A stretch of 32,000 bases of DNA from Caldicellulosiruptor hydrothermalis 108 (GTDB lineage Bacteria > Bacillota > Thermoanaerobacteria > Caldicellulosiruptorales > Caldicellulosiruptoraceae), in the NCBI RefSeq assembly GCF_000166355.1, contig NC_014652.1, forward strand, positions 1,616,928-1,648,927, read 5' to 3'. A program made the translations under genes and the position numbers. The notes under the pieces were generated by a model. That model was not told the origin of the DNA, did not search any database, and saw only the letters and a list, made by a program, of their open reading frames with translations. Below, in pieces: positions 1-23,450 of the stretch; positions within the stretch are counted from its first letter, which is position 1; each line of letters starts with the position of its first letter.

Positions 1-1409
1 AGTTTTTTGGTCAAACTATCTCTTCTTTGTTTAAATTCTTTTCCTTGGGCCGCAATTTCATTTTTTATATGTTCTTTTTCTTCTTGACCATTAATCTGGC
101 GTAAGCATACTGGGCACCTTCCCTGATTTGCCTCTATAAGTCTGTAACTTGAAGCAAGCTCTTTTAATTTGTTTTCCACTACCTCTAACAATTTTTCATG
201 TTTTACAATTTCCTCTCTTTTCTTCTCTTGTTCCTGTTTATACTGCTTTACTTTTTCCAGCTCATTTTCGACCTTCGAAATTTCTACCTCCACTTTTTTC
301 ATCTCTTCCTCATACTTTGAAATCTCAGAAGTTTCTTTATTCAGTTGTAAATTACTCTCTTCAATACTCTTTTCAAATATCTTTTTCTGATCCAGTTTGT
401 TTTTTATATCCCTTTCATACAAAACCATCTTGTTTTTAAGCTCAATATACATTTCATAATCCTTTCTCTTAATCTCAACCTTTTCTTTTATCATCTCATA
501 CTCTTTAACCATTGCAGTTATCTTATCTTCTTCATTTAACTTTTCCTCAATTTTTAAAAGCTCTTTTCTGGCAGTTTCAATCTTATACCTTATCTCCTCA
601 GCTTTTCTCTGATGTTCTGTCATTTCATTCTTTTTCTGACTCAATAAATGAAGTTTTTGTTCTATTTCAGACCTCTGCGAAATAAGGGCATTTAGTCTAT
701 TTCTCAAACCGTTTAATTCAGCTTCTATTGCGGTTCTCTTCTTTTCCAAATCAGCCATCAAAGATTTTATTGACTCTTCTTCTGACAAAATCTTATTTTC
801 CTCCTCTATTTCTTTGTTCTTTATATCCAGCAAAACTTTTATCTCTTTTCGTTTTTCTTTTGCAAGTTCATTTATCCTGTCATATATACTCAGGTTCAGT
901 ATCTTTGCAAGAATTTCTCGCCTGTTTTCTGGCGAAGAAAGTAAAAAATCTTCTGTTCGTTTTTGAGAAAGATAGGCAGAATGCAAAAAGACATTAAAAT
1001 CTATCCCTAAAATATTCTGAAGCTTTATTTGGGTTTGGGTGTAAGTTGCTTCATTGATAGGTATGAGACTGTCTGCTTTTCTAACAAAAAGCGAAAGGTA
1101 CTTTTTCCCTCTTCTATCAAGTCTTCTCACAACTTTATATATGGTCTTATTCAATTCAAATTCAAATTCAACCTGCATATAATCCTTATGTGAGTTTATA
1201 TACTCTGTTTCTGCAACTTTTCCACGCTTGCCTGTTTGAAGTCTTTCAAACTCACCAAAAAGCGCCCAGGCAATTGCCTCAGCAATAGAAGATTTCCCAT
1301 TGCCATTTTTCCCTATGATACAGGCAACTTTTATATTACTAAAATCAATCTCGTTTTGAGTCTCTTGATATGATTTGAAATTTTCAATCCTCAAAAAAAG
1401 AGGTCTCAA
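1..1409 (-). CDS. sbcC: SbcC/Rad50-family SMC-like ATPase, N-terminal ~469 codons only (the 3' end lies beyond the left edge of the window)
   Basis: Absent from the supplied ORF track because it runs off the window. Hand translation of the minus strand from TTG at 1409 gives (M)RPLFLRIENFKSYQETQNEIDFSNIKVACIIGKNGNGKSSIAEAIAWALFG (Walker A). A long K/E-rich coiled coil follows, with a CPVC zinc hook encoded at 105..116. A GAGGTGGGG RBS lies 7 nt upstream, and the start is 17 nt after the sbcD stop. Confidence 0.9.
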   Translation of the reverse strand, partial: MRPLFLRIENFKSYQETQNEIDFSNIKVACIIGKNGNGKSSIAEAIAWALFGEFERLQTGKRGKVAETEYINSHKDYMQVEFEFELNKTIYKVVRRLDRRGKKYLSLFVRKADSLIPINEATYTQTQIKLQNILGIDFNVFLHSAYLSQKRTEDFLLSSPENRREILAKILNLSIYDRINELAKEKRKEIKVLLDIKNKEIEEENKILSEEESIKSLMADLEKKRTAIEAELNGLRNRLNALISQRSEIEQKLHLLSQKKNEMTEHQRKAEEIRYKIETARKELLKIEEKLNEEDKITAMVKEYEMIKEKVEIKRKDYEMYIELKNKMVLYERDIKNKLDQKKIFEKSIEESNLQLNKETSEISKYEEEMKKVEVEISKVENELEKVKQYKQEQEKKREEIVKHEKLLEVVENKLKELASSYRLIEANQGRCPVCLRQINGQEEKEHIKNEIAAQGKEFKQRRDSLTKK

Positions 1410-1426
1410 ATTTCATCCCCACCTCT

Positions 1427-2698
1427 TTATTCGCTTTCATTTTCCTGCACTTCATACAAAAGCTTTTTGAATTCTGATACAACTTTATCTTTATTCTCTA
1501 TACCCGTGTATTTTTTGCTTGCTGATAAAAATTTTTCAAAGGCATAAACAGGGTCTGACTTCTCGTCAACCTCAGTTATTCTAAAATCTTTCTTTGAATC
1601 AACTACTTCAATTTCAATAGGCGCTAAAACAAAACATCTGTCTCTCAAAAACTTTTCAATAAGCCCAACGTCAATCTTTTCTTTTATCAAACTTTGAGTT
1701 TTTATTATGAGCTTTACAACCGAAACCTGAATACTACTTGAAGTATTTTGCTCAAACATTTGTATTTTCTCTTCTATTTTGTCAAGAAGCTTTTTATTGA
1801 GATTTTCTACTTCGTCTTCAAACACATCAATTTCTAACTGGCAAAAAGGTCTTACCTTAACAGGTTGAAACTCAAACCTAAAGCTATCTTTGCCTATCTC
1901 AAACACAACAAACCCCTTGCTGTCGCTTGCTTCAGAAAAATCTATCCTGTCAGGTGATCCACAATACAACACAGTAGGGTTTGCTGCATGTAAAATCTGA
2001 GGTTTGTGGATGTGACCAAGGGCCACAAATTTCAACTTTGCATTTAAAAGGCATGAAAGAGGCACTTTTACATCTTTGCCAAGCATAATTGATCTTTCAC
2101 TGCCAATCTGCGCCTCTACCACAGTAAAATGCCCTGCAAGGATTGTTGGAATATTGTCTTCTAAAGAGTCTAAAATCTGGCCAAGCTTTCTCTCAAAAAA
2201 GTTAGCTGCTACCAGATCAAACTCTTCTGTATTTTGAGGAAATGTCTCATCCACAAACCTTTCAAGGTAAAGGTATGGCACAGCCACAATGCGAAGCTTT
2301 TCACTTCTTATTTCAAATTCTTTGACTTCAAACGGTTTGTCCATTACAACAATATTTGGCTGGTCGAATATCTCAAAGACCTTTATAGAATGGTCTTTTG
2401 TCTCAAATGGATGCATATCATGATTGCCTGGAATTATAATGACCAAAACACCTTCTTTCGAAATATCCACAATCCTCTTGTAAAACATATTCCTCAGCGT
2501 AGAGTTCGGTTCCCTGTCTTTAAAAATATCGCCTGTTATAAGCAAGAGGTCAATGCTGTTTTCTCTTATAAACTGCAATATTCTGTCAAATGTTTTGAAA
2601 AAGTCATGTACACGTGAGCCAAGTCCGTCTGGAGTCTCTTTGCTGTAAGTTGTCACACCAAAATGAAGATCTGCTGTATGAACACCTCTTATTGCCAT
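1427..2698 (-). CDS. sbcD: Mre11/SbcD-family nuclease (metallophosphoesterase)
   Basis: 423-aa ORF with the phosphoesterase motifs in canonical order: HTADLHFG, GDIFKD, GNHD, AGHF, GHIH. AGAGGGAGA RBS. Tightly linked to herA upstream and sbcC downstream. Confidence 0.92.
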   Translation of the reverse strand: MAIRGVHTADLHFGVTTYSKETPDGLGSRVHDFFKTFDRILQFIRENSIDLLLITGDIFKDREPNSTLRNMFYKRIVDISKEGVLVIIIPGNHDMHPFETKDHSIKVFEIFDQPNIVVMDKPFEVKEFEIRSEKLRIVAVPYLYLERFVDETFPQNTEEFDLVAANFFERKLGQILDSLEDNIPTILAGHFTVVEAQIGSERSIMLGKDVKVPLSCLLNAKLKFVALGHIHKPQILHAANPTVLYCGSPDRIDFSEASDSKGFVVFEIGKDSFRFEFQPVKVRPFCQLEIDVFEDEVENLNKKLLDKIEEKIQMFEQNTSSSIQVSVVKLIIKTQSLIKEKIDVGLIEKFLRDRCFVLAPIEIEVVDSKKDFRITEVDEKSDPVYAFEKFLSASKKYTGIENKDKVVSEFKKLLYEVQENESE

Positions 2699-2722
2699 TT
2701 TATTCTCCCTCTTGAAAAATTT

Positions 2723-4387
2723 TTAATAGTCCATCTCATCAAGCCACTTCTTAGATGCCTCTATCGTTTTTTCGTACTTTTCGTCCACCTCATGTTTTGG
2801 AGCATAAATTGAAACAAAATCATAAAAGCTGTTATCATACCCCCTTGTTTTGATTGCAATTGGCATTGGAACTGCATGACCTATCAGTAAAGCCTGCTGT
2901 TTTGAATCAAGTGACTCTATAATTGATCTTAGCTGTTTGCTATTTTTCATACCAGCAAGTGCACTTGTAATGTCAGCTTCATCAGAAAGTGCTAGAACCA
3001 CCCTTGTTCCAATTTGTGATGCAATCTCGCTGTCTATCTGAGAAGGTCTCTGGTCTATACACATAAGGCTTACCTTTGCTTTTCTCATCTCTCTTGCTAT
3101 TGTTCCAAATATTGTCTGCTTTGCAACATCGGGCGATAAAAATCTGTGTGCTTCTTCAATTGCAATCACAAGTGGCCTTGGAGGAGAATATTTTTGTCTG
3201 TTTGAGATATACCTTTCGTACATCTCCATATATCTTTGGTAAATACGTCTTGATAAGACGTTTGTAACAAAGAGGTAATTAAGTAATTTGTCACTCTTGC
3301 CAAATGTTATATCAACACTTATACCTTTTTGAAGATAGTTTAAAATAATATCAATTGAGTTTGTACCAGGTCGTCTATCATATCTAAGGTAGGGTAATTC
3401 TTTTAACACAGAAAGCTTTCTGATAAGTGCCAAAAGCGAACTTCTGTTGACTACTGCTTCGCTGTCTTTAAACCTCTCTGCTAAGTCCTCACCATTTGTA
3501 AGTATTTCTTCAAGCCAGTGTTTACCCTCTGTCTCCAACTTATTTTTCAGTGCAATCATAACCTGCTGTGCTGTCTCATTGAGGTTTAGTTCTTCTGCAA
3601 TTGATAAAATATCCTCGATCTCAACATCTCTAACATCAATCTCAATCGGCAAAACACCTGCCATTGACGATAAATTTTCAATTGTCATTATCTGGACTTT
3701 GCTTCCAAAAAGACTTTTAAGCCCTTTAACAGGCCGGTTTTCCTCATCAACGCTGTCAGGTCCATGGTCTGAGTGAGCATCAAAAATGAGAAGCGATGCC
3801 TTATCACAAAGGATAATCCCTGCCATCAATAATCTTGCAATAAATGATTTTCCTGTACCAGTCCTGCCGTAAATGCCACTGCTTCGTTCAATAAATCTTT
3901 CCATGTCTATGCATACTGTAGAGCTTTCGTCCATGTCAAGAACACTTCCAACTGGAAAATAACGTTTTGGATTTTTTTCAAAACTCCCAAACACATCTGA
4001 AATATCATCATAGGTAGCTCTTCTAACACTTGAAGCATGAACGGGTATGTTTCTTATAGGCTGATTTTTCTTTTCCTCAAGGTCGTAAGAAAGAACTGGC
4101 TGTGCCTTAAACACGGTGTAAATAGAAGTCCCCCTTGTAATCCTGTTCAAAAGCAGGCTTGAGTTTCCTCGCGGAAGTTCTGACAAAGCTTGCTTGTTCA
4201 TGCCCTCTATTACCATGTCGGTAAGCATACAGTAGTACTTTCTCTTTTCTGTTTGGCTAACAAGAATTGCTCCAATCCTTGTACTTTCCACCACAGAATC
4301 ATCCTCGACCTTTATTGCAAGACCTTCTGAATACGAACCACCTATGATTTTGCCAATTCTGTTCTCTTCATACATACTACTTGCCAT
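2723..4387 (-). CDS. herA: HerA-like (DUF87, FtsK/HerA superfamily) hexameric ATPase/helicase
   Basis: 554-aa ORF with an N-terminal barrel-like segment (IGKIIGGSYSEGLAIKVEDD...), Walker A GRTGTGKS, a Walker B-like VIAIEEAHRF, and an IDQRPSQIDSEIASQIGTRVVLALSD block typical of HerA proteins. Confidence 0.85.
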   Translation of the reverse strand: MASSMYEENRIGKIIGGSYSEGLAIKVEDDSVVESTRIGAILVSQTEKRKYYCMLTDMVIEGMNKQALSELPRGNSSLLLNRITRGTSIYTVFKAQPVLSYDLEEKKNQPIRNIPVHASSVRRATYDDISDVFGSFEKNPKRYFPVGSVLDMDESSTVCIDMERFIERSSGIYGRTGTGKSFIARLLMAGIILCDKASLLIFDAHSDHGPDSVDEENRPVKGLKSLFGSKVQIMTIENLSSMAGVLPIEIDVRDVEIEDILSIAEELNLNETAQQVMIALKNKLETEGKHWLEEILTNGEDLAERFKDSEAVVNRSSLLALIRKLSVLKELPYLRYDRRPGTNSIDIILNYLQKGISVDITFGKSDKLLNYLFVTNVLSRRIYQRYMEMYERYISNRQKYSPPRPLVIAIEEAHRFLSPDVAKQTIFGTIAREMRKAKVSLMCIDQRPSQIDSEIASQIGTRVVLALSDEADITSALAGMKNSKQLRSIIESLDSKQQALLIGHAVPMPIAIKTRGYDNSFYDFVSIYAPKHEVDEKYEKTIEASKKWLDEMDY

Positions 4388-4394
4388 ATCTCAA

Positions 4395-4991
4395 TCACCC
4401 TTCTTGTACAGTCATTATCAGATTCTCTAACCTTTCAATTATAGGCTCAAGAAGATTGAGGTCATATTTAAGATAAGCGTTCAAGCTTTTTCCCATCTGT
4501 TCTATATAGTAATAGTCTTTTCCTCTTGCAAGATATGCAAAAAAGAGCATCCATGGAACAACCTCGATTATATCAATATCTTTTGCCTTTAGTACAGAAT
4601 TTAGAAAAAGACCATTTTGAGTGGCAAGAAGAATTTCTTTTTGGTTTGCCAGTTCAACCAAACTGTGAAGTCTTATACTTTTGTCAGGAAGACATCCAAC
4701 AAACTTCTCATCTACTATGTAACCAAGAACAACGCATTTAAAATAACCTTTCAAAATCTGGCTAATTTGTGGATACTGCTTTTTAATCTCTTCTGGTGAT
4801 TTCCATAAAGCTCTCGGGTATCCTCCCTCAGATATGCTGCCGATATCATATCTTGTAACACACCCGACCACTGTGTAATCATCCAAATTAAATTTTATAA
4901 ACCTTCCAGGTGTAGGTATGTTGTTCAAATCCTTTGCCTCACAAGTAAGCTGTGTAAAAGAGATATCTATTATCTCACCCACTATCATCAC
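4395..4991 (-). CDS. Uncharacterised 198-aa protein: HerA-N-terminal (HAS-barrel)-like domain plus a short C-terminal helical region, with no NTPase motifs
   Basis: ORF sits 15 nt after the nurA stop and 7 nt before the herA start. By eye, residues ~3-50 and ~84-120 align with the herA product's ~11-60 and ~93-129 (VGEIIDISFTQL.. vs IGKIIGGSYSEGL..; FKCVVLGY..P..S..HSLVELANQKEI vs FKAQPVLSY..P..P.HASSVRRATYDDI). No Walker A or B motif. Confidence 0.6.
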   Translation of the reverse strand: MMIVGEIIDISFTQLTCEAKDLNNIPTPGRFIKFNLDDYTVVGCVTRYDIGSISEGGYPRALWKSPEEIKKQYPQISQILKGYFKCVVLGYIVDEKFVGCLPDKSIRLHSLVELANQKEILLATQNGLFLNSVLKAKDIDIIEVVPWMLFFAYLARGKDYYYIEQMGKSLNAYLKYDLNLLEPIIERLENLIMTVQEG

Positions 4992-5006
4992 TAAAACTAC
5001 TCCTTT

Positions 5007-6179
5007 TTATATTATTCTTTTTATCTTGTTGTTCTTTTTAGCAGAGTAGTGCACAAGATTATCTTCAAAACTTTGCAGCATGCTTTCTATCGAATCCTTG
5101 TCGTCTTTAGATATTACAGAAAATTCATGAGCATGTGTCAAAGATATGGGATAACCAAACCCCAGCTGACACTGATGGTAAATAGCACCAATAACATTTT
5201 CAAACCAAACCTTATCGTTCGCTATATAAAGCGGAAACTCTATTCGAGCTATTTCATAACCTGTATTCAAATAAACAAAGCCTATATCGGTCTTTTCAAA
5301 CTCATCAAAAGCTCTACCTAATGTGTAAAAGATGTTTGAATACTCTCCTTCCCTAAGGCCGGAAAATAAAACGACATCCTTTATTCTGCCTATCTTTTCA
5401 CACTCTCTTTTTTGCTCCTTTGGACACTCTCTACAGTTTATCCTTGGTTTTTCACACATATGTATTCTGTAAATATTAGAAATAATCGAATTTTTAGGGA
5501 CAGAAATAAAACCGCACACGGCTATTTTCTTTTGCTCTGCCAGGATGAATATCCTTTCAAGAATAGCATTTGCTTTTCTGCCAAAACGCATACCTTGCCT
5601 GTCTTGCGACCAGTCAACAAGATTGCCGTCGTAAAGCACTATTTTGAGCTTATCTGTTTGAGTACTCTTTTCTATATACTCTAAAATTGCCTCAAACTCT
5701 TTTTGTTGGCGCTCTTGTGATATCTCAGAAGAATTTTTAAAAGTAACATCGTCTTTGTCAGAATATAATTCCTGGTCGAGGTAAATGTAGGGAAAAGTTC
5801 TGTACCAAAATCTACTTTCTTTTTCTCCATAGGCAATAAAGACACACGCTATGTTCAGCACATAGTAAGGTGTTAGATTATGTCTATCTATTTCTGTATT
5901 ACTGCCATCTACTGCAAAGACCTCATACTCAAGATTCAAATGACATCTGTGAGATTTCAAAAATTCATCGTAATTGCTATAGTAGGGAAGGCAGAATAAA
6001 ATCTCATTTTTCTCGTCCTTGCTGGGAATTTTTGCAAGAACACTTTGAATTTTCTTCTCATCTGCCGATTTTAAAAATGCGAACACATTTTCCATATTTG
6101 ATTTTAGCTCTTTTTTGTGTTTTGCTAAAATCTCTTTCTTCTCATTTATCTGTTCAGATAAACTATAAAGGTCTAACAT
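5007..6179 (-). CDS. nurA: NurA-like 5'-3' nuclease
   Basis: 390-aa ORF with NurA-type motifs as I recall them: FAVDGS (Asp91), VLYDGNL, and C-terminal GYPISLTHAHEF. It is the first gene of the five-gene cluster. It also carries a Cx6Cx2Cx7C insert (residues 242-260). Confidence 0.75.
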   Translation of the reverse strand: MLDLYSLSEQINEKKEILAKHKKELKSNMENVFAFLKSADEKKIQSVLAKIPSKDEKNEILFCLPYYSNYDEFLKSHRCHLNLEYEVFAVDGSNTEIDRHNLTPYYVLNIACVFIAYGEKESRFWYRTFPYIYLDQELYSDKDDVTFKNSSEISQERQQKEFEAILEYIEKSTQTDKLKIVLYDGNLVDWSQDRQGMRFGRKANAILERIFILAEQKKIAVCGFISVPKNSIISNIYRIHMCEKPRINCRECPKEQKRECEKIGRIKDVVLFSGLREGEYSNIFYTLGRAFDEFEKTDIGFVYLNTGYEIARIEFPLYIANDKVWFENVIGAIYHQCQLGFGYPISLTHAHEFSVISKDDKDSIESMLQSFEDNLVHYSAKKNNKIKRII

Positions 6180-6236
6180 CTTATCACATCCAAAAAGTCA
6201 TTCTTTACTTTAATTAAATTATATCTCTTTCTTATC

Positions 6237-6245
6237 ATTATATCA
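6237..6245 (-). promoter_or_regulatory. Candidate extended -10 promoter (TGATATAAT) for the nurA operon
   Basis: The minus strand reads TTTGATATAATGATAAG immediately after the ispF stop and about 55 nt before the nurA ATG. No terminator is visible between ispF and nurA, so read-through from ispF is also possible. Confidence 0.35.
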
Positions 6246-6250
6246 AACAT

Positions 6251-6724
6251 TTATTCGTAAATCAAAACAACTGCATATGCTGAAATCCCTTCTTCTCTTC
6301 CTTCAAATCCCAATCCTTCAGTTGTTTTTCCTTTTATATTTACCTGCGTACTTTCAATCTTGAGACAATCTGCAATTTTATTTTTCATCTCATTAGTATA
6401 TGGAGAAATCTTGGGCCTTTGGCTAACCACCGTAGAATCTATATTCACTATTTTCAAGTTTTTCTCTTCTAAAAGCTTTGCAACTTCTTTTAAAAGAAGC
6501 AGGCTGGAAATGTCTTTATACTTTGGGTTGCTGTCAGGGAAAAGTTTCCCAATATCATTTTCACCCATAGCACCAAGAATAGCATCAATTATGGCGTGAA
6601 TTAAAACATCCGCATCTGAATGTCCCAGAAGTCCCTTTTCGAATGGTATTTCAACTCCGCCCAATACAAGTTTTCTTCCCTCGACAAATCTGTGAACATC
6701 ATACCCAATTCCCACTTTAAACAT
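6251..6724 (-). CDS. ispF: 2-C-methyl-D-erythritol 2,4-cyclodiphosphate synthase
   Basis: 157-aa ORF: GIGYDVHRF..., [29 protein letters not shown]. Classic IspF signature. AAAGGAGAG RBS. Confidence 0.95.
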
Positions 6725-6778
6725 TTGATTTAAACTCTCCTTTCAAATATTACATCTTCAATCCCAAATCTCATTTAA

Positions 6779-7170
6779 TCAGCCCTTCAACTTTTCCTCA
6801 AGCTCTATCAATAATGGCAAGTAATCACTTTTTATTCTATCAAATATTATTTTAGCAATACACTCATCATAGGTGCTGACCACCAAGCTCCTGTCTTCAA
6901 TCATCTTTAGCCATTTTTCTTGATTTTCAATCAAGCCCACTGAAAATGCTTCTTTGAAAACTGCTCTGGGTGAAGAAATACTTACTATGCCTTGATATTC
7001 CAAATACGCCTTCAATAATTTCCAGGCAAGCTCATAGGTAAATTCAAATCTTTGAATAGTACCATCATACAAAAGAGGATTATCGCTTCTTTCTTCTACT
7101 ACTTCTTTCAATCTTAAAAGTGCTTCTGAAAGTTAGCAAACCTTTCTTTAATTTTTTCCAAATTATTCAT
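6779..7170 (-). pseudogene. HEPN-domain protein of the HI0074 / nucleotidyltransferase substrate-binding family, disrupted by a frameshift, with no MNT partner gene
   Basis: The 110-aa ORF 6779..7111 (..IQRFEFTYELAWKLLKAYLEYQG..) lacks the family's N-terminal helix. That helix, MNNLEKIKERFANFQ.., is encoded at 7114..7170 in another frame. The main frame reads TAA-LSEALLRLKEVVEE, so a 1-nt indel lies near 7126..7135. Confidence 0.65.
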
Positions 7171-7255
7171 CCTCCATTTTCTTTTTGTCCTTTTAACATC
7201 TCGATATTTAAATTATATCACACATGAAAAAGAGCTCTTAGTCTTTCAAAAAAAT

Positions 7256-7285
7256 TTGACATACAAAGAATCTTAATGGTATTAT
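7256..7285 (+). promoter_or_regulatory. Sigma-A-type promoter for the lysine-riboswitch operon
   Basis: TTGACA (7256..7261), an 18-nt spacer, then TGgTATTAT (-10 at 7280..7285 with an extended TG). It lies about 30 nt upstream of the riboswitch P1. Confidence 0.55.
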
Positions 7286-7312
7286 TAAATAAACACCACA
7301 AGTGAATAGCTC

Positions 7313-7512
7313 ATAATATATTAATAGATAGAGGCGCGTCTTTTAAGAGTAGGCAGGTGGATGTGAAAGAAGACACAGATGAAACCTGCTGAAAGGAAAA
7401 GACGCCGAAGGGAGTTTCTTTCTTCTTGGAAACTACCCTGGGTGCATGGAGAATATCCATGCAACTGTCACCAATTGAAAAATTGGTGGAGCGCTATCTG
7501 TTAATATATTGT
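7313..7512 (+). promoter_or_regulatory. Lysine riboswitch (L-box) aptamer
   Basis: Conserved L-box blocks appear in order: AGAGGCGC, AGAGTAG, CTGAAAGG, GACGCCGAAG, CCTGGG, ACTGTCA, GGTGGAGCGCTATC. The P1 5' strand 7313..7331 can pair with 7494..7512. It sits upstream of the lysine/DAP pathway genes. Confidence 0.88.
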
Positions 7513-7538
7513 ATGGCTAATGTACAATATATTAACAG
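7498..7538 (+). promoter_or_regulatory. Perfect 16-bp palindromic hairpin, a candidate antiterminator of the L-box expression platform
   Basis: CTGTTAATATATTGTA (7498..7513) and TACAATATATTAACAG (7523..7538) are exact reverse complements. The left arm is also the 3' strand of the extended P1, so the two pairings are mutually exclusive. Confidence 0.5.
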
Positions 7539-7566
7539 AAGCTGGCTCAAAAACCAGCTTTTTTTA
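7539..7566 (+). terminator. Intrinsic terminator of the L-box leader
   Basis: AAGCTGG-ctcaaaaa-CCAGCTT followed by a T-run, located before the asd RBS (GAGGAGG at 7608..7614). Confidence 0.75.
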
Positions 7567-7625
7567 GTTTTACACAAACACATTGAAACACAACTTTAAT
7601 TTTTGAAGAGGAGGTTTACAGTAAA

Positions 7626-8627
7626 GTGGCAAAGAAAATCAGAATGGCAATAGTTGGCGCAACAGGCATGGTTGGAAGAACATTTTTAAAGGTTTTGGAA
7701 GAGAGAAATCTGCCGGTTGAAGAATATTTCCTCTTTGCATCAAGCAGGTCAGCAGGGACAAAAGTTGAGTTTATGGAAAGAGAATACACAGTTGAAGAGT
7801 TAAAAGAAGACTCATTTGACAGGGGCATTGACATTGCTTTGTTCTCTGCCGGTGCTTCAACATCTCTTCACTTTGCTCCAATTGCAGCATCAAAAGGCTG
7901 TATTGTAATTGACAACTCAAGTGCATGGCGTATGGAAAAGGATGTTCCTCTTGTTGTACCGGAGGTCAACCCTGAAGATATTAAATGGCACAAGGGAATT
8001 ATTGCAAACCCTAACTGTTCAACCATCCAGGCAGTTGTTGTTTTAAAACCTTTGCATGACAGGTACAAAATAAAAAGGATTGTGTACTCAACATACCAGG
8101 CAGTTTCAGGTGCAGGATATCAAGGATATTTGGATTTAGAAGAAGGATTAAAAGGTGCTCCGCCAAAGAAGTTCCCATACCCAATTGCAGGAAATGTTAT
8201 TCCTCATATTGACGTATTTTTAGAAAATGGATATACAAAAGAAGAGATGAAGATGATAAACGAGACAAGAAAGATTTTACATGATGACTCTATAAAGATT
8301 ACTGCAACAACTGTGAGAGTGCCTGTTTTCAACGGTCACAGCGAATCAATAAATGTGGAGTTCGAAAAGCAGTTTGATTTAGAAGAGTTAAAAGAAATTC
8401 TCAAGAGTGCTCCAGGCGTGGTTGTTCAGGACGACCCTGCAAATCTTTTATATCCGATGCCAATTTATGTTTCTGGAAAAGATGAAGTATATGTTGGAAG
8501 AATCAGAAGAGATGAGTCTGTTGAAAGTGGGGTCAATCTATGGGTTGTTGCAGACAATATAAGAAAAGGAGCAGCAACAAATGCTGTTCAGATAGCTGAA
8601 AAGGTAATAGAATATTTCTTTAGCTAA
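7626..8627 (+). CDS. asd: Aspartate-semialdehyde dehydrogenase
   Basis: 333-aa ORF with a GTG start. IVGATGMVGR NAD(P) fold, active-site NPNCSTIQ, and C-terminal ADNIRKGAA. Confidence 0.95.
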   Translation: MAKKIRMAIVGATGMVGRTFLKVLEERNLPVEEYFLFASSRSAGTKVEFMEREYTVEELKEDSFDRGIDIALFSAGASTSLHFAPIAASKGCIVIDNSSAWRMEKDVPLVVPEVNPEDIKWHKGIIANPNCSTIQAVVVLKPLHDRYKIKRIVYSTYQAVSGAGYQGYLDLEEGLKGAPPKKFPYPIAGNVIPHIDVFLENGYTKEEMKMINETRKILHDDSIKITATTVRVPVFNGHSESINVEFEKQFDLEELKEILKSAPGVVVQDDPANLLYPMPIYVSGKDEVYVGRIRRDESVESGVNLWVVADNIRKGAATNAVQIAEKVIEYFFS

Positions 8628-8681
8628 CTGAAAAGTGGCTATAATTAAAAAGTTTGAATAAATTGGGAGGTTTTATAGGCT

Positions 8682-9569
8682 ATGGCACTCTTTAAAGGTT
8701 CAGGTGTTGCCTTAATAACACCTTTTAAGGATGAAGAGAGTGTAGACTTTGAAACGCTTGGAAGACTTGTTGACTTTCATCTTGAACACAAGACAGATGC
8801 AATCATTGTATGTGGCACAACTGGAGAACCCTCAACAATGCCAGATGATGAGCATTTAGAAGTAATCAGATTTGTAATTGACAGGGTAGCTGGTAGAAAA
8901 CCTGTTATTGCTGGTGTTGGTAGCAATCACACAAAACATGCCGTTTATCTTTCCAAAAAAGCACAGGAGCTTGGTGCAGATGGTCTTTTGCATGTAACAC
9001 CATACTACAACAAGACAACTCAAAAAGGATTGATTGAACACTTTCAAAGAATAAATGAAGCTGTGTCAATTCCTATTATTGTTTACAACGTACCATCAAG
9101 AACAGGGCTAAATGTCTTACCAGAAACTATGAAAGAGCTTGCAAAACTGCCAAATATAAAAGCAATAAAAGAAGCAAGTGGCAACATCACACAGGTTGCT
9201 GAGATTGCTATGCTCTGTCCTGAAATTGATATCTATTCTGGAAACGACGACCAAATAGTACCCATTCTCTCTGTTGGTGGAATTGGCGTTATTTCAGTGC
9301 TGGCGAATATTCTACCTGATGAGACACATGACATTGTTGAATATTTCTTAAACGGTGAAATTGAAAAAGCAAGACAGCTTCAGCTAAAGCTTCTTCCAAT
9401 AATCAAAGCACTCTTTATTGAGGTAAACCCAATCCCTGTTAAAGAAGCTATGAACATGATGGGATTTAATGTCGGAAAACCAAGGCTGCCGCTTACTACT
9501 ATGACAGAAAAGAATAGAGAAATTCTCAAAAAAGCACTTGTTGACTATGGTATTTCGGTAAAGGAATGA
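8682..9569 (+). CDS. dapA: 4-hydroxy-tetrahydrodipicolinate synthase
   Basis: 295-aa ORF: [30 protein letters not shown] (Schiff-base Lys region). Confidence 0.95.
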
Positions 9570-9606
9570 GAATAAAATAATAACAAGGATTGGATGTGAG
9601 ACACAA

Positions 9607-10365
9607 ATGATTAGCATTTTACTTAACGGTTGCAATGGTAAAATGGGTCAGGTTGTTAGCAGAGTTGCTAAGAACTATGATAATATCAAAATTGTTGCAG
9701 GGGTTGATTTAAATACAGCAAAAATCTTTGATTATCCGGTTTATAAAAGTCCTGAAGAAGTGGTTGAAAACTTTGATGTCATAATTGACTTTTCTCTTTC
9801 TGAAGCAACAATGAAAATACTTGAGTTTGCAAAGCAGAAAAACAAACCAGTTGTAATAGCAACAACAGGCTTTACATCTGAACAGAAATCCAAAATTTTT
9901 GAATGTTCAAAACAAATTCCTATTTTCTGGTCTGCCAATATGTCTTTGGGAGTAAATCTTGTTGCAGAGCTCATTCAAAAGGCTTACAAAGCTCTTGGTC
10001 CTTCATTTGATATTGAAATCATTGAAAAGCACCACAATCAGAAAATAGATTCACCTTCTGGCACAGCCCTTATGCTTGCTGATGCAATAAACGAGATTGC
10101 AAATAATTCTTATGAGTATATCTATGACAGGCATACAAGGAGAAAGAAAAGACAGCAAAACGAAATTGGAATTGCATCAATACGCGGTGGAACAATTGTG
10201 GGTGAGCACAGTGTTATTTTTGCCGGCCCTGATGAGATTATCGAGATAAAGCACACAGCACTTTCAAAAGAAATCTTTGCAAACGGGGCAATCAAGGCTG
10301 CAATGTTTATGATAGGCAAAGGCGCGGGTATATATAATATGAAAGATTTGATTAATTCAATGTGA
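9607..10365 (+). CDS. dapB: 4-hydroxy-tetrahydrodipicolinate reductase
   Basis: 252-aa ORF: NGCNGKMG, EIIEKHHNQKIDSPSGTA signature, GHSVIF-like EHSVIFAG. Confidence 0.93.
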   Translation: MISILLNGCNGKMGQVVSRVAKNYDNIKIVAGVDLNTAKIFDYPVYKSPEEVVENFDVIIDFSLSEATMKILEFAKQKNKPVVIATTGFTSEQKSKIFECSKQIPIFWSANMSLGVNLVAELIQKAYKALGPSFDIEIIEKHHNQKIDSPSGTALMLADAINEIANNSYEYIYDRHTRRKKRQQNEIGIASIRGGTIVGEHSVIFAGPDEIIEIKHTALSKEIFANGAIKAAMFMIGKGAGIYNMKDLINSM

Positions 10366-10377
10366 GGTGTTTTAAAT

Positions 10378-10845
10378 TTGAAGCCTGTGACAAATTTAAA
10401 TGTCACCCAGAACGTTGCAATGATAACCCTTGACAATGTCCCCAATAAAATTGATTTAATAGCCTCCATCTTTAATGAAGTGGCAAACCATGGAATAAAT
10501 ATTGATATGATAAGCCAAACAGCACCCTATAAAGGAAGTATAAATTTATCATTTAGCCTTGACGAAGAAAACGTACCAAAGGCAATATCAGCACTCAGCA
10601 AGTTCAAAAAAGAGATCCCTCACCTGAGAATTGATATCGTGTCGGGCTTGAGCAAGCTTTCTATCTTTGGTGAGGCAATGAAAGACATTCCGGGCGTTGC
10701 AGCATCACTTTTCACCACTTTGGCTGAAGCAGGTGTTGAGCTTAAGATGGTAACAACAAGTGAGGTTGACATATCATATTTGATTGACCAGAAAGATGAG
10801 GAAAAAGCTGTTCAGATTATAAAAGAAAGATTTGATTTAAAGTAG
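10378..10845 (+). CDS. Stand-alone tandem-ACT-domain protein resembling the regulatory (beta) part of aspartokinase
   Basis: 155-aa ORF with a TTG start and a GAGGTG RBS 8 nt upstream. INIDMISQ, KLSIFGEAMKDIPGVAA and TTSEVDISYLI match the C-terminal ACT pair of LysC-type aspartokinases. No kinase domain is present. Confidence 0.8.
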   Translation: MKPVTNLNVTQNVAMITLDNVPNKIDLIASIFNEVANHGINIDMISQTAPYKGSINLSFSLDEENVPKAISALSKFKKEIPHLRIDIVSGLSKLSIFGEAMKDIPGVAASLFTTLAEAGVELKMVTTSEVDISYLIDQKDEEKAVQIIKERFDLK

Positions 10846-10856
10846 GTTGTGTGCAT

Positions 10857-10900
10857 GCTGCCCAAAACTGCCTTTGAAGTTGGGGCAGCTTATTTTTTTT
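10857..10900 (+). terminator. Intrinsic terminator ending the asd-dapA-dapB-ACT operon
   Basis: GCTGCCCAA...TTGGGGCAGC stem followed by TTATTTTTTTT. Confidence 0.75.
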
Positions 10901-10907
10901 GACAGTA

Positions 10908-10936
10908 TTGAATTTTGGTCTTCCACTTAGTATTAT
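10908..10936 (+). promoter_or_regulatory. Candidate promoter for reverse gyrase
   Basis: TTGAAT (10908..10913), a 17-nt spacer, then TATTAT (10931..10936). Confidence 0.4.
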
Positions 10937-10982
10937 TGAAAAATAGAAGTGTTTAAAACTTAAACATCAGGAGGAATGCTGA

Positions 10983-13900
10983 TTGGCAACAGGAGCAAAA
11001 TACTATCACTCTTGCATAAATTGTGGTGGGATAAATACAGATACAAGAAACGAAAAAGGACTCCCATGCGAGGAGTGTCTGGCACAAGAGCAGCTTAATG
11101 AAAATATATTTGAGTCATTAAAAAAGAAAGGGTCCTTGAAACATTACCAACTATACTGGAATTTTCAGCAAATCTATAGTATGTTTGAAAAGTTTTTTGA
11201 GCTTATTTTCCACAAACCCATGACGGGATACCAAAGAACATGGGCAAGACGGTTTTTGCTTTCAAAAAGCTTCACGCTTGTTGCCCCAACAGGAGTTGGT
11301 AAAACCACTTTTGGACTTGTAGCAAGCCTTTTTTCAGCGCTACATGGTAAAAAATCAGCGCTTGTATTCCCCACAATCTCACTTGCCCAGCAGTCTTTTG
11401 AAAGACTCAACCAATTTAAATCAAAAATCCAAAACGCAGATGCCATTCGTATCTTGTTATTTAACTCTTCCATGACAAAGAGCGAAAAGGAAGAGTTTGA
11501 GCAAAGGTTTTTATCTCAAGATTTTGAAATACTCATTGTATCTTCTCAGTTTATTTCAAAAAGAAAAGATGTTCTCTCAAAAATGTTTTTTGACCTTGTA
11601 TTTGTAGATGATGTAGACGCTATTTTGAAATCTTCAAAGAACATCGATACACTACTTCAGATGATAGGCTTTTCAGAAGATGAGATTGAAAAAGCAACCG
11701 AAAGATTGAGAAGCAAAAATAAAGAAAATGGGCAAGATACAGTTTCAAATGGTTCTAAAAATAAGGGAATGCTCATAGTATCCTCAGCAACAGCAAAGCC
11801 GCAGGGATTAAAGCCTCTTCTCTTCAGAGAACTCTTGGGTTTTGAAATTGGCAGATTTACATTTAATATAAGAAATATAACCAATATAAGAATCAAAAAT
11901 AAGTCAAATGAAAAATTGCTTGAAATAATCAATATCTTAAAAGATGGTATACTTCTGTTTGTCAACACTGAGGAAGAAGGAAAAGAAATTGTTAAATTTC
12001 TTTTAGAAAATGGTATTAAAATTGGAGCTACATGGAATGATTTTGAGAAGGAGTTTGAATTTTTCAAAGAAGGAAAGTTGAATGTCATCTGTGGCGTTTC
12101 TTCTTACTATGGAAAGCTAATAAGAGGAATTGACTTACCTTCACGCATAAAATACTGTATCTTTTGGGAAACACCTTGTTTTAGATTTTTGATTGACATG
12201 GATAAAGCTCCTCGATTTGTACTTGAAAGGGTCTTTGTTGAATACCTTGATAATCATCCTAAGCTTAAGGAATATTTTAAAAACGTTGAGTACTTACAAA
12301 CAGAAAAGCTTAGACAGCTTGTTTCAAAATATATATCTTATGAAGATTACAGCAAAATTGTAAACAAAATATTCTCGCACCTGAAATTAACCGACGATGG
12401 TAAATTAATTATTCCAGACGTTCCAACATACATCCAGGGTTCTGGAAGAACCTCGAGAATGTTTGGAATGAACCTGACAAAAGGAGTTTCAATTCTTTTT
12501 GAAGAAGATGATACTATTTTTGAGAGTTTAAAGTCACGACTTATGTTTTTGCTTGATGAGGAATGGATTGACGAAAGCGAAGTAAATCTTGAAAGTCTAA
12601 TAATGGAGGTAGAAGAAAGCCGAAAAAGCCGAAATGAAGATTTTAACGTAAACGACACAAAATCAAGACTTATGATAGTTGAATCCCCAACAAAAGCTGA
12701 TACAATATCAAAATTCTTGGAGAAAGCCTCAACAAGAAGATATGGTAAACTTTCTGTATATGAATCGATAACACCGGAAGGAATTTTGCTTATCACTGCA
12801 TCAAAAGGGCATGTGTACGACCTTGAGACAAAAAAAGGGCTGCACGGTGTTGAGTACCATGATGGAAAATTCATTCCCTATTACAACTCTATTAAACGCT
12901 GCATGAAATGCAATACACAATTTACAGATGAGCTTGATAGCTGTCCCAAATGCGCATCCAATACAATTGATGATAAAAAAGAAATCTTAAAAACATTGCG
13001 TGAGCTTGCGCTTGAGGTTGACGAAGTATTGATTGCAACAGACCCTGATGTTGAAGGAGAAAAGATATCATGGGACATTTCACAGTATATAAAGCCTGCA
13101 AATAGTAATATCAAAAGAATTGAAATGCATGAAATTACACGCTATGGTCTTGACAGTGCCTTGAAAAACCCACGACAGTTCAACACAAACCTTGTAAAAT
13201 CTCAAATTGTGCGAAGAATAGAAGATAGATGGATAGGATTTGAGCTTTCTTCAAAGCTTCAAGAAAACTTTAAAAGTTACAATCTTTCTGCTGGGCGCGT
13301 GCAGTCAACCATCCTTGGCTGGATTGTTGAAAGAGAAAAGGAATATGCAAAAAGTGAAAGAACATTTACCCTTTTAAAACTTGAAAATGGATATAGTCTT
13401 GAAATTGAAGGAGAAGAAGAGTGCGAAAGAGTAAAAGCAGAAGTTGTTGATCAGAAAATAGAAGAAATACCTGCACCTGCCCCATTTTCGACTTCTTCTT
13501 TGTTATCCTTAGCTTCACAGAAATTAAATTTGGGTGTGCAGCAAATAATGGAGATTTTGCAGTTTTTGTTTGAGCACGGCTTTATCACTTATCACAGAAC
13601 AGACTCAACAAGGATTTCAGCAACAGGCCAGAACATTGCAAGAATGTTTTTGGAAAAGGTGGGTAAAAAAGAATTGTTTTTACCAAGAAGTGTTGGAGAT
13701 GAAGGTGCTCATGAAGCAATAAGACCTGTAAAACCTATATCACCTGAGGAACTAAAAGAGCTTGCCTATGAAAAATATGCACAGGGTATATCACAAAATC
13801 ACATAAAAGTTTATCAGCTCATTTTCAACAGGTTTATGAGCAGCCAAATGAAAAATCCTAAGGTTTTGGTTCAAAAAGTACATTTTAGAATCAATGATAT

Positions 13901-14351
13901 TGAAATTGTCAAGGACATCCCTGTAAAAATAGAAGAAGAGGGCTGGCTGGAATTTCTTCCTATGCAGATTTACCCTTTGTTTGAAAATAAGGACTACAGC
14001 ATCACTGACAAGCGAAGTTATAAAAAACATACTATTCAGCTTTATACCCAGGCAAGCCTTATTGACGAAATGAAACAGAAAAACATAGGAAGGCCTTCAA
14101 CATATGCAAAGATGGTAGAAACACTTTTCAAAAGAGGGTATGTTTTTGAAGATAGCTTTAGAAGAATAAGGTCAACATCGCTTGGTAAGAAGGTATATTC
14201 TTATCTTTCACAAAAATATGGTGAATACGTAAATGAGCAAACCACACGCGAGCTTGAAAAGCTCATGGACATAGTAGAAGAGGGAAAAAGAGATTACCAG
14301 GAGATTTTACAAGAACTTTACAATGATATAAGTGTACTTTTAAACAAGTAA
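10983..14351 (+). CDS. rgy: Reverse gyrase (SF2 helicase-like domain fused to a type IA topoisomerase)
   Basis: 1122-aa ORF with a TTG start and a GGAGG RBS 8 nt upstream. N-terminal zinc finger CINCGG..CEEC. Helicase motifs APTGVGKT, DDVD, SSATA, QGSGRTSR. TOPRIM IVESPTKA and DPDVEGE. Second zinc ribbon CMKC..CPKC. Topo IA active-site Tyr in ITYHRTDS. Confidence 0.96.
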   Translation: MATGAKYYHSCINCGGINTDTRNEKGLPCEECLAQEQLNENIFESLKKKGSLKHYQLYWNFQQIYSMFEKFFELIFHKPMTGYQRTWARRFLLSKSFTLVAPTGVGKTTFGLVASLFSALHGKKSALVFPTISLAQQSFERLNQFKSKIQNADAIRILLFNSSMTKSEKEEFEQRFLSQDFEILIVSSQFISKRKDVLSKMFFDLVFVDDVDAILKSSKNIDTLLQMIGFSEDEIEKATERLRSKNKENGQDTVSNGSKNKGMLIVSSATAKPQGLKPLLFRELLGFEIGRFTFNIRNITNIRIKNKSNEKLLEIINILKDGILLFVNTEEEGKEIVKFLLENGIKIGATWNDFEKEFEFFKEGKLNVICGVSSYYGKLIRGIDLPSRIKYCIFWETPCFRFLIDMDKAPRFVLERVFVEYLDNHPKLKEYFKNVEYLQTEKLRQLVSKYISYEDYSKIVNKIFSHLKLTDDGKLIIPDVPTYIQGSGRTSRMFGMNLTKGVSILFEEDDTIFESLKSRLMFLLDEEWIDESEVNLESLIMEVEESRKSRNEDFNVNDTKSRLMIVESPTKADTISKFLEKASTRRYGKLSVYESITPEGILLITASKGHVYDLETKKGLHGVEYHDGKFIPYYNSIKRCMKCNTQFTDELDSCPKCASNTIDDKKEILKTLRELALEVDEVLIATDPDVEGEKISWDISQYIKPANSNIKRIEMHEITRYGLDSALKNPRQFNTNLVKSQIVRRIEDRWIGFELSSKLQENFKSYNLSAGRVQSTILGWIVEREKEYAKSERTFTLLKLENGYSLEIEGEEECERVKAEVVDQKIEEIPAPAPFSTSSLLSLASQKLNLGVQQIMEILQFLFEHGFITYHRTDSTRISATGQNIARMFLEKVGKKELFLPRSVGDEGAHEAIRPVKPISPEELKELAYEKYAQGISQNHIKVYQLIFNRFMSSQMKNPKVLVQKVHFRINDIEIVKDIPVKIEEEGWLEFLPMQIYPLFENKDYSITDKRSYKKHTIQLYTQASLIDEMKQKNIGRPSTYAKMVETLFKRGYVFEDSFRRIRSTSLGKKVYSYLSQKYGEYVNEQTTRELEKLMDIVEEGKRDYQEILQELYNDISVLLNK

Positions 14352-21934: not shown

Positions 21935-23320
<1,386 letters not shown>

Positions 23321-23450
23321 TTACTTCTTATCTGCCAGGTATTTTAAAAATACCTGCTGGAATTGGCACCAAGAAAAAGGGCACCCCTACCTTTTTCCGG
23401 TTGCCGGGCTTCATTGGGCCAGTCCCTCCGCCACTCTTGATAAGAAGTAA
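23321..23450 (-). promoter_or_regulatory. SAM-I riboswitch (S-box) aptamer
   Basis: The minus strand reads TTACTTCTTATCAAGAGTGGCGGAGGGACTGGCCCAATGAAGCCCGGCAACC...GGTGCCAATTCCAGCAGG...GGCAGATAAGAAGTAA. It has a 12-bp perfect P1 and all the conserved S-box blocks. Confidence 0.93.

Follow-up and report, generated by a model that had tools for sequence, protein, structure and literature searches.

A predicted stand-alone HAS-barrel protein in the nurA-herA-sbcD-sbcC cluster of Caldicellulosiruptor hydrothermalis

NurA and HerA are regarded as a two-protein resection motor, and they have been studied mainly in archaea, Deinococcus and Thermus. In the 32,000-nt stretch of Caldicellulosiruptor hydrothermalis 108 that was analysed here (NC_014652.1; hereafter the window), genes for a NurA-family nuclease and a HerA-family ATPase are present in one co-directional cluster with sbcD (mre11) and sbcC (rad50), and a fifth gene, formerly unassigned, separates nurA from herA. 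This locus raises the questions of what the fifth protein is, whether the cluster serves DNA repair or defence, and whether a gene set that looks archaeal has indeed been acquired from archaea. It should be noted that the linkage of nurA, herA, sbcD and sbcC in bacteria is already known: in Oceanithermus profundus, sbcD and sbcC are located downstream of nurA-hepA (Blesa et al. 2017, PMC5448004). What is new here is the fifth gene, whose product, HASb, is predicted to be a stand-alone HAS-barrel protein and, in many bacterial phyla, is conserved in the company of NurA and HerA. Our literature search found no paper that describes a stand-alone HAS-barrel protein as a companion of NurA or HerA, and none that discusses the NurA/HerA cluster of Caldicellulosiruptor.

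The cluster comprises the following elements:

5007..6179, minus strand: nurA, NurA-family nuclease of 390 aa, first gene of the putative operon
4395..4991, minus strand: HASb, predicted stand-alone HAS-barrel protein of 198 aa (the formerly unassigned fifth gene)
2723..4387, minus strand: herA, HerA-family hexameric translocase ATPase of 554 aa
1427..2698, minus strand: sbcD/mre11, Mre11-family phosphoesterase nuclease of 423 aa
1..1409, minus strand: N-terminal part of sbcC/rad50, truncated by the window edge; 469 open codons from a TTG start at 1409
6218..6246, minus strand: sigma-70-like promoter candidate, TTGATA-17-TATAAT, upstream of nurA (consensus match only)

The fifth protein and its neighbours

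For the HASb gene, the ATG at 4988 is the probable start, which gives a protein of 197 aa, because the homologues of the protein begin with MIVGEI. Calow_0952 of Caldicellulosiruptor owensensis shares 88% identity with the 198-aa protein, and a word-based search finds relatives in Caldicellulosiruptoraceae only. When 1.84 billion cluster representatives were searched with a profile, at least 311 relatives were recovered at E <= 0.001, most of them about 190-220 aa in length and matching from end to end. The Pfam HAS-barrel family PF09378 is matched by 35 of the 59 relatives that were aligned (best E 2e-9), and some relatives bear the NCBI name "HAS-barrel domain-containing protein". The comparison of HASb with PADLOC gave nothing meaningful (E 0.003 over a 29-residue stretch), and no homologues of HASb were found on plasmids.

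The AlphaFold2 model of HASb (predicted local distance difference test score, pLDDT, 83.7) consists of an N-terminal beta-barrel (residues ~1-115) followed by a C-terminal helical bundle (~117-197). When this model was compared with the PDB using Foldseek, all of the chains among the 50 matches listed were HerA-type ATPases, aligned over 117-159 columns; the best match was HerA of Sulfolobus solfataricus (4d2i; 1.6e-6, probability 1.00), and further matches included Sir2-HerA, DUF4297-HerA, TdpA and the HerA-NurA complex of Thermococcus kodakarensis. These alignments are taken to cover the N-terminal HAS-barrel region of HerA. The HerA encoded in the window has such a barrel at residues 10-123 of its own AlphaFold2 model (pLDDT 81.3); the Pfam HAS-barrel profile does not reach this protein at E <= 0.1, and homologues of it at about 42% identity do carry PF09378. 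In the two models, HASb and the N-terminus of HerA display an identical order of elements, beta-beta-beta-beta-alpha-alpha-beta-beta-beta-alpha. As judged from these models, HASb is predicted to be a stand-alone HAS-barrel protein, that is, a copy of the N-terminal domain of HerA combined with a helical bundle. Because HerA retains its own barrel, with the same order of elements, HASb appears to be an additional copy and not the product of a split gene. An apparent NurA-HASb fusion (P0018) was rejected as Rosetta-stone evidence, since it resembles two adjacent genes read through by way of a frameshift.

The genes found next to HASb in other genomes were obtained by look-ups seeded with HASb itself. 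In all nine of the distinct contexts, NurA is located immediately upstream and/or HerA immediately downstream, and the stop and start codons of neighbouring genes frequently overlap. The arrangements are:

NurA-HASb-HerA: Caldicellulosiruptoraceae bacterium PP1 (L001), L090 and L091
NurA ... HASb-HerA: L006
HASb-HerA: L004, L089 and L092
NurA-HASb, with no HerA nearby: L005 and L007 (Thermodesulfobacteriota)

At L006, nurA and HASb have a PIN-MazE pair between them as well as a PLD-like gene (6189-7698), and a methyltransferase gene paired with a gene for a BglII-like endonuclease (10961-12474) lies downstream of herA; at L090, a Cas9-like gene (10240-13491) is found near the NurA-HASb-HerA module. 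These defence-type genes may be inserted mobile or defence genes, or they may reflect a link to defence in those lineages.

A separate scan was seeded with HerA, using its alignment and one genome per species, and the loci were tabulated with hidden Markov models built for the purpose. The counts refer to the best 80 loci, 72 of which were assessable, in a sample that is biased to cyanobacteria and contains no Caldicellulosiruptor genomes. The order NurA-HASb-HerA is present at nine of the 72 loci, belonging to Latescibacterota, Armatimonadota, Chloroflexota, Dehalococcoidia and others, and HASb-HerA at two; NurA directly beside HerA without HASb was observed at none of the 72. Linkage to sbcD and sbcC takes looser forms: at L025, sbcDC is 1.6 kb away from the module, across a gene on the opposite strand, at L082 only sbcD is present, after an unrelated hydrolase gene, and at L028 sbcC is divergently adjacent to herA. 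At some of the loci with HerA alone, the opposite strand carries a nearby gene for SbcC or a Rad50-like protein (L028, L029 and L035).

Judging from these gene orders, NurA-HASb-HerA is a widespread bacterial module, and the particularity of the Caldicellulosiruptoraceae would be its tight junction with sbcDC. The first-pass annotation, made from the DNA sequence alone, proposed that nurA had moved to the front of an archaeal operon and that a fifth gene had been inserted, a view that has to be reversed, as nurA, HASb and herA stand in the standard order of the bacterial module. Compared with the modules of Latescibacterota, Chloroflexota, Armatimonadota, Thermodesulfobacteriota and KSB3/Moduliflexus, none of which has been characterised, the window has the same families in the same order, which in those genomes are often translationally coupled, and the proteins are 36-44% (HerA), 24-31% (NurA) and 23-32% (HASb) identical. 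Those modules are usually not linked to sbcDC, whereas sbcDC is joined to the module in Caldicellulosiruptor. About 300 clusters of proteins named "hypothetical" or "HAS-barrel domain-containing" thereby gain a functional context.

The cluster as a putative operon

The families assigned to the other four genes in the first-pass annotation all stand, with profile matches beyond chance, and the motifs on which it had relied are all found in the translations. Thus, NurA, HerA, SbcD and SbcC are encoded together in one co-directional cluster, as in the archaeal operons, and their active-site motifs (the acidic and His residues of NurA, the Walker A and B motifs of HerA, the phosphoesterase motifs of SbcD, and the Walker A motif and zinc hook of SbcC) are intact.

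NurA matches Pfam PF09376 (3.1e-14; 53.5 bits, cutoff 21) with residues 86-356, covering profile positions 2-254 of 254, and contains the motifs AVDGS, YDGNL and GYPISLTHAHE. In an alignment of 12 members of its clade, residues D91, G92, S93, H100, E161, D184, G185, D268, Y343, P344 and H351 are invariant; from the position of the motifs, D91, E161, D184, D268 and H351 would be the RNase H-like metal-binding acidic and His residues equivalent to those of archaeal NurA. No meaningful match was found among PDB sequences. A cluster of four cysteines (C242, C249, C252 and C260; window 5400..5456, minus strand), with the spacing CX6-7C-X2-C-Xn-C, is kept in 10 of the 12 clade members and may form a zinc ribbon set into the nuclease.

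HerA has DUF87 (PF01935; 1.8e-34) as its central domain, with the Walker A motif GRTGTGKS and the Walker B motif IEEAH, and is 97% identical to HerA of C. obsidiansis and C. bescii. At full length, it shares 36-44% identity with thousands of HerA proteins from bacteria (Thermodesulfobacteriota, Latescibacterota, Chloroflexota, Armatimonadota and Cyanobacteria), and its nearest relatives outside its own family are bacterial (41-44% identity at full length). Archaeal HerA sequences from the PDB match only its C-terminal ATPase part, with 51-54 bits. The curated models of HerA of archaeal double-strand break (DSB) repair (NF040937 and NF040819) and of anti-phage HerA (NF042943 and NF042944) gave 70, 63, 65 and 60 bits, respectively, against cutoffs of 800-970, which places the window HerA outside both of these curated subgroups as far as sequence scores can tell. 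Foldseek searches with the HerA chain retrieved Sir2-HerA, S. solfataricus HerA (4d2i) and the T. kodakarensis HerA-NurA complex (9x1m), with E values of 1.4e-24 to 4.5e-22. A role in DNA import similar to that of CedD is unlikely (56 bits against a cutoff of 600 for the CedD model).

SbcD exceeds the cutoff of TIGR00619 (sbcd) with 109.2 bits (2.9e-31; cutoff 77.65), also matches Metallophos (5.2e-14), and carries the phosphoesterase motifs DLH, GD, GNHD, GH and GHIH. Its closest relative of solved structure is Mre11/SbcD of Thermotoga maritima (80 bits), followed by E. coli SbcD (64 bits) and Mre11 of Pyrococcus furiosus (46 bits); the archaeal Mre11 equivalog models gave 50-55 bits, below their cutoffs of 500-600. 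The SbcC fragment in the window matches TIGR00618 (sbcc; 6.8e-38), AAA_23 (1.5e-19) and SMC_N, and contains the Walker A motif GKNGNGKS and the CPVC zinc hook. Full-length SbcC has 857-858 aa; in the near-identical contig L088 (12982-15555) it has 857 aa, and its C-terminal half contains the signature SGGE, the Walker B motif LILDEGF and the H-loop. With TIGR00618 (cutoff 478.5) this orthologue reaches 246 bits at full length, and with the best archaeal Rad50 model (cutoff 700) 143 bits, and the SbcC head scores 90.6 bits with Rad50 of Methanocaldococcus jannaschii, 79 bits with T. maritima Rad50 and 62.5 bits with E. coli SbcC. The protein thus has the appearance of a divergent, short SbcC/Rad50.

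The layout had been described as five co-directional minus-strand genes, each with its own ribosome-binding site (RBS), closely packed and without an internal terminator. The list of open reading frames reproduces the four complete ones exactly, in addition to the open frame 1..1409, and the gaps between the five genes were re-measured as 15, 7, 24 and 17 nt. Purine-rich, RBS-like stretches were seen ahead of the starts that were inspected, namely AAAGGAG before the HASb gene, AGAGGGAG before sbcD and AGAGGTGGGG before sbcC. A consensus scan of the minus strand detected no convincing terminator-like site in the interior of the cluster, and the operon-like packing indicated by coordinates and spacing holds. 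The promoter candidate at 6246..6218, between ispF (6251..6724) and nurA, is the top minus-strand site in 1..7700, matching 11 of 12 consensus positions, and the same TTGATA-17-TATAAT site is kept upstream of nurA in contig L088.

The conservation of the neighbourhood, which had been left as a point to check, was borne out: the order ispF-nurA-HASb-herA-sbcD-sbcC-ybaB-recR is common to L088 and to Caldicellulosiruptoraceae bacterium PP1 (L001), a distant member of the family whose proteins are 43-65% identical to those of the window. The gene for the nucleoid-associated protein YbaB and recR follow directly after sbcC on the same strand (L088:15545-16564; L001:9400-10352). Because the consensus scan of L088 found no terminator-like site from nurA through recR, the transcription unit probably continues past the window edge into ybaB-recR and would include seven genes in all. 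The GC content of the cluster is 0.32-0.38, similar to that of the remaining window, and no compositional anomaly was seen in this comparison. An origin from a mobile element was rejected; HASb lacks a plasmid homologue, and the search for plasmid homologues of HerA returned a single match of 24% identity and none that is close.

Proposed function and its alternatives

Starting from the protein families, the HASb fold, the adjacency of the genes and their synteny within the family, we infer a role in repair, together with physical contacts between the products, their stoichiometry and their co-transcription. We consider it fairly probable that the cluster is a chromosomal, vertically inherited operon for the resection of DSB ends, made up of two bacterial modules, and that HASb, as a third subunit, serves to dock NurA on HerA. 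The SbcD-SbcC (Mre11-Rad50) complex recognises, tethers and trims DNA ends, and HerA, as a hexamer, delivers duplex DNA to the dimer of NurA. The first module, SbcD-SbcC, would accordingly act on the DNA ends. In the second module, NurA-HASb-HerA, the HerA hexamer would move the duplex through its central channel into the NurA dimer, resulting in long-range resection, by analogy with the archaeal and Deinococcus complexes.

The association of HerA and NurA takes place via HerA's HAS domain, and models have NurA docking on the face of the HAS barrel (PMC3326311, PMC9960219). HASb would be a stoichiometric third subunit that holds NurA by its HAS-barrel surface and couples it to HerA, with the helical bundle contacting HerA or NurA. 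It might form an adaptor ring stacked on the HAS crown of HerA, or be a NurA-holding subunit that hands NurA over to HerA. The products of ybaB and recR, genes that are probably co-transcribed with the cluster, would tie resection to the loading of RecA. A more far-reaching version of this proposal, which we put forward as a tentative possibility, is that a three-component motor operates in a large bacterial clade, in which translocation coupled to degradation depends on a HASb ring or adaptor between HerA and NurA. In Caldicellulosiruptoraceae, the motor would belong to a seven-gene recombination operon that leads from end recognition through long-range resection to hand-over to RecA and is possibly the main resection pathway of these extreme thermophiles.

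The first-pass annotation left the choice between repair and defence open. Of the two, resection is the most plausible and the genomic context argues against defence; repair is favoured because of the fixed position of the cluster between housekeeping genes, the presence of ybaB-recR after it, the lack of close plasmid homologues, and the combination of no known defence effector with weak and partial matches to defence HerA proteins.

Several observations weigh against this proposal. HASb of the window gives no match with Pfam or NCBIfam, and the hhalign comparison of the HASb and HerA families, colinear as it is, is not significant (probability 0.5%, E 0.11). Neither NurA nor HASb is present within 10 kb of HerA at 61 of the 72 HerA-seeded loci, mostly of cyanobacteria (L013-L084), which means that HerA does not always need these two locally, and the tight five-gene linkage is seen only in Caldicellulosiruptoraceae. 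Anti-phage defence likewise employs HerA-family ATPases together with nuclease partners, and Foldseek ranked defence and repair HerA structures equally. Finally, the operon status is read only from spacing and consensus scans.

The alternative that survives best concerns HASb and leaves the operon a repair operon. HASb could be a regulator or decoy that mimics the HAS face and either sequesters the NurA dimer or caps the HerA ring, holding nuclease and motor inactive up to their release by a DNA end or SbcCD. The NurA-HASb pairs of Thermodesulfobacteriota, which have no HerA nearby (L005 and L007), would fit a stable subcomplex apart from HerA, and HerA has its own HAS barrel, so that an additional one is not obviously needed for docking. 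Moreover, removal of the HAS domain severely impaired the association of S. solfataricus HerA with NurA (PMC3326311), and a free HAS barrel could therefore compete for NurA. However, HASb is also found paired with HerA where no NurA is nearby (L004, L089 and L092), stop and start codons that overlap on both sides speak for equimolar co-assembly over titration, and the conserved helical bundle at the C-terminus points to a second interface, which a bridge would be expected to have. We therefore regard the regulatory role as unlikely.

Less likely still is the idea that the cluster defends against phages or plasmids as a HerA-plus-effector system; in that case NurA would serve as the effector nuclease and HASb as a sensor or adaptor, and foreign ends would be degraded by SbcCD. 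The HerA models of PADLOC do match the window HerA (best 1.8e-32), the best PDB matches in sequence and fold include Sir2-HerA, DUF4297-HerA and TdpA, and toxin-antitoxin, PLD-like, restriction-modification and Cas9-like genes accompany the module at L006 and L090. The matches to the anti-phage models of PADLOC and NCBIfam, however, mainly concern the C-terminal ATPase part (65 bits against 800), NurA has no match in PADLOC, and the cluster contains no gene for Sir2 or DUF4297 and no dnd/tdpC gene. In addition, the site between ispF and ybaB-recR is fixed across the whole family, the neighbours are housekeeping genes, HASb has no plasmid homologue and HerA no close one, and the composition matches that of the host. 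Sir2-HerA/Nezha, DUF4297-HerA and TdpAB share with the locus a hexameric ATPase of the HerA fold, to which the window HerA matches about as well as it does to repair HerA, and in those systems the HAS face binds the partner enzyme. They have other effectors, whereas the locus described here is a conserved part of the core genome outside any defence-island context, with weak and partial sequence matches. A phosphorothioate-sensing defence similar to TdpAB was also considered and rejected (TdpA only 22.7 bits, no dnd/tdpC nearby).

The weakest alternative, that a thermophilic Firmicute laterally acquired an archaeal herA-mre11-rad50-nurA operon and then rearranged it, is very improbable: the host is an extreme thermophile with reverse gyrase in the same window, the four-gene combination is an archaeal hallmark (PMC3326311) and the head of the short SbcC scores slightly higher with M. 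jannaschii Rad50 than with T. maritima Rad50 or E. coli SbcC, but the relatives of HerA are bacterial at full length and archaeal HerA matches only at the C-terminus, SbcD fits the bacterial SbcD best, SbcC as a whole scores higher with the sbcc model than with archaeal Rad50, the NurA-HASb-HerA order is common to many bacterial phyla, the consulted descriptions of the archaeal operon include no HASb-like gene, and the cluster is without compositional anomaly. The proposal of a laterally acquired archaeal-type machine, made in the first-pass annotation, is therefore not supported, HerA and SbcD being of bacterial affinity, while SbcC gives a mixed signal: its ancestry appears ambiguous, the sbcc model being preferred and the head being slightly nearer to M. 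jannaschii Rad50. Overall, the set would be an archaeal combination by function, assembled from bacterial lineages.

Comparison with the systems known to act in repair is consistent with this view. The operons of Sulfolobus, Pyrococcus and Thermococcus contain the same four families in one co-directional cluster. Their order is herA-mre11-rad50-nurA, whereas here it is nurA-HASb-herA-sbcD-sbcC with the additional stand-alone HAS-barrel gene, and the sequences are of bacterial affinity (mixed in the case of SbcC), with scores far below the archaeal equivalog cutoffs. In the bacteria Deinococcus radiodurans and Thermus thermophilus, nurA is likewise located upstream of herA (hepA), and genetic work has shown roles of these genes in DNA repair (PMC9960219, PMC5448004). 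The HerA proteins of Deinococcus and Thermus belong to a different clade, no such chain being present among the PDB sequence matches of the window HerA at E <= 0.001. A third, HAS-barrel gene has not been described for the Deinococcus, Thermus or Oceanithermus systems, and here ybaB-recR follow sbcC.

Should HASb prove to be a genuine subunit, the NurA-HerA system in its most widespread bacterial form would differ in architecture and regulation from the complexes that have been solved. The hypothesis that HASb bridges or gates the contact between NurA and HerA is open to test, and C. bescii is genetically tractable. More generally, repair operons that look archaeal can arise independently in bacteria from bacterial parts.

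Surroundings of the cluster

The genes flanking the cluster are housekeeping genes, comprising ispF, genes for lysine biosynthesis, the reverse gyrase gene and ybaB-recR. Reverse gyrase, a hallmark of extreme thermophiles, is encoded 5 kb from the operon (10983..14351, plus strand; 1122 aa) and has zf_Rg, helicase, Toprim and topoisomerase IA domains. A lysine riboswitch (7321..7504, plus strand; 139.7 bits) lies ahead of four co-directional open reading frames (7626..10845, plus strand), which in L088 are named aspartate-semialdehyde dehydrogenase (asd), DapA, DapB and ACT-domain protein. Other genes of the window include purB and obg. Further along, an S-adenosylmethionine riboswitch (23325..23446, minus strand; 94.4 bits) is located upstream of a gene for a pyridoxal phosphate-dependent enzyme of Cys/Met metabolism (21935..23212, minus strand), after which comes a gene for an alpha/beta hydrolase, possibly a homoserine O-acetyltransferase. 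Just upstream of ispF, a 110-aa nucleotidyltransferase substrate-binding (HEPN-like) protein is encoded at 6779..7111 on the minus strand (PF08780, 5.8e-35).

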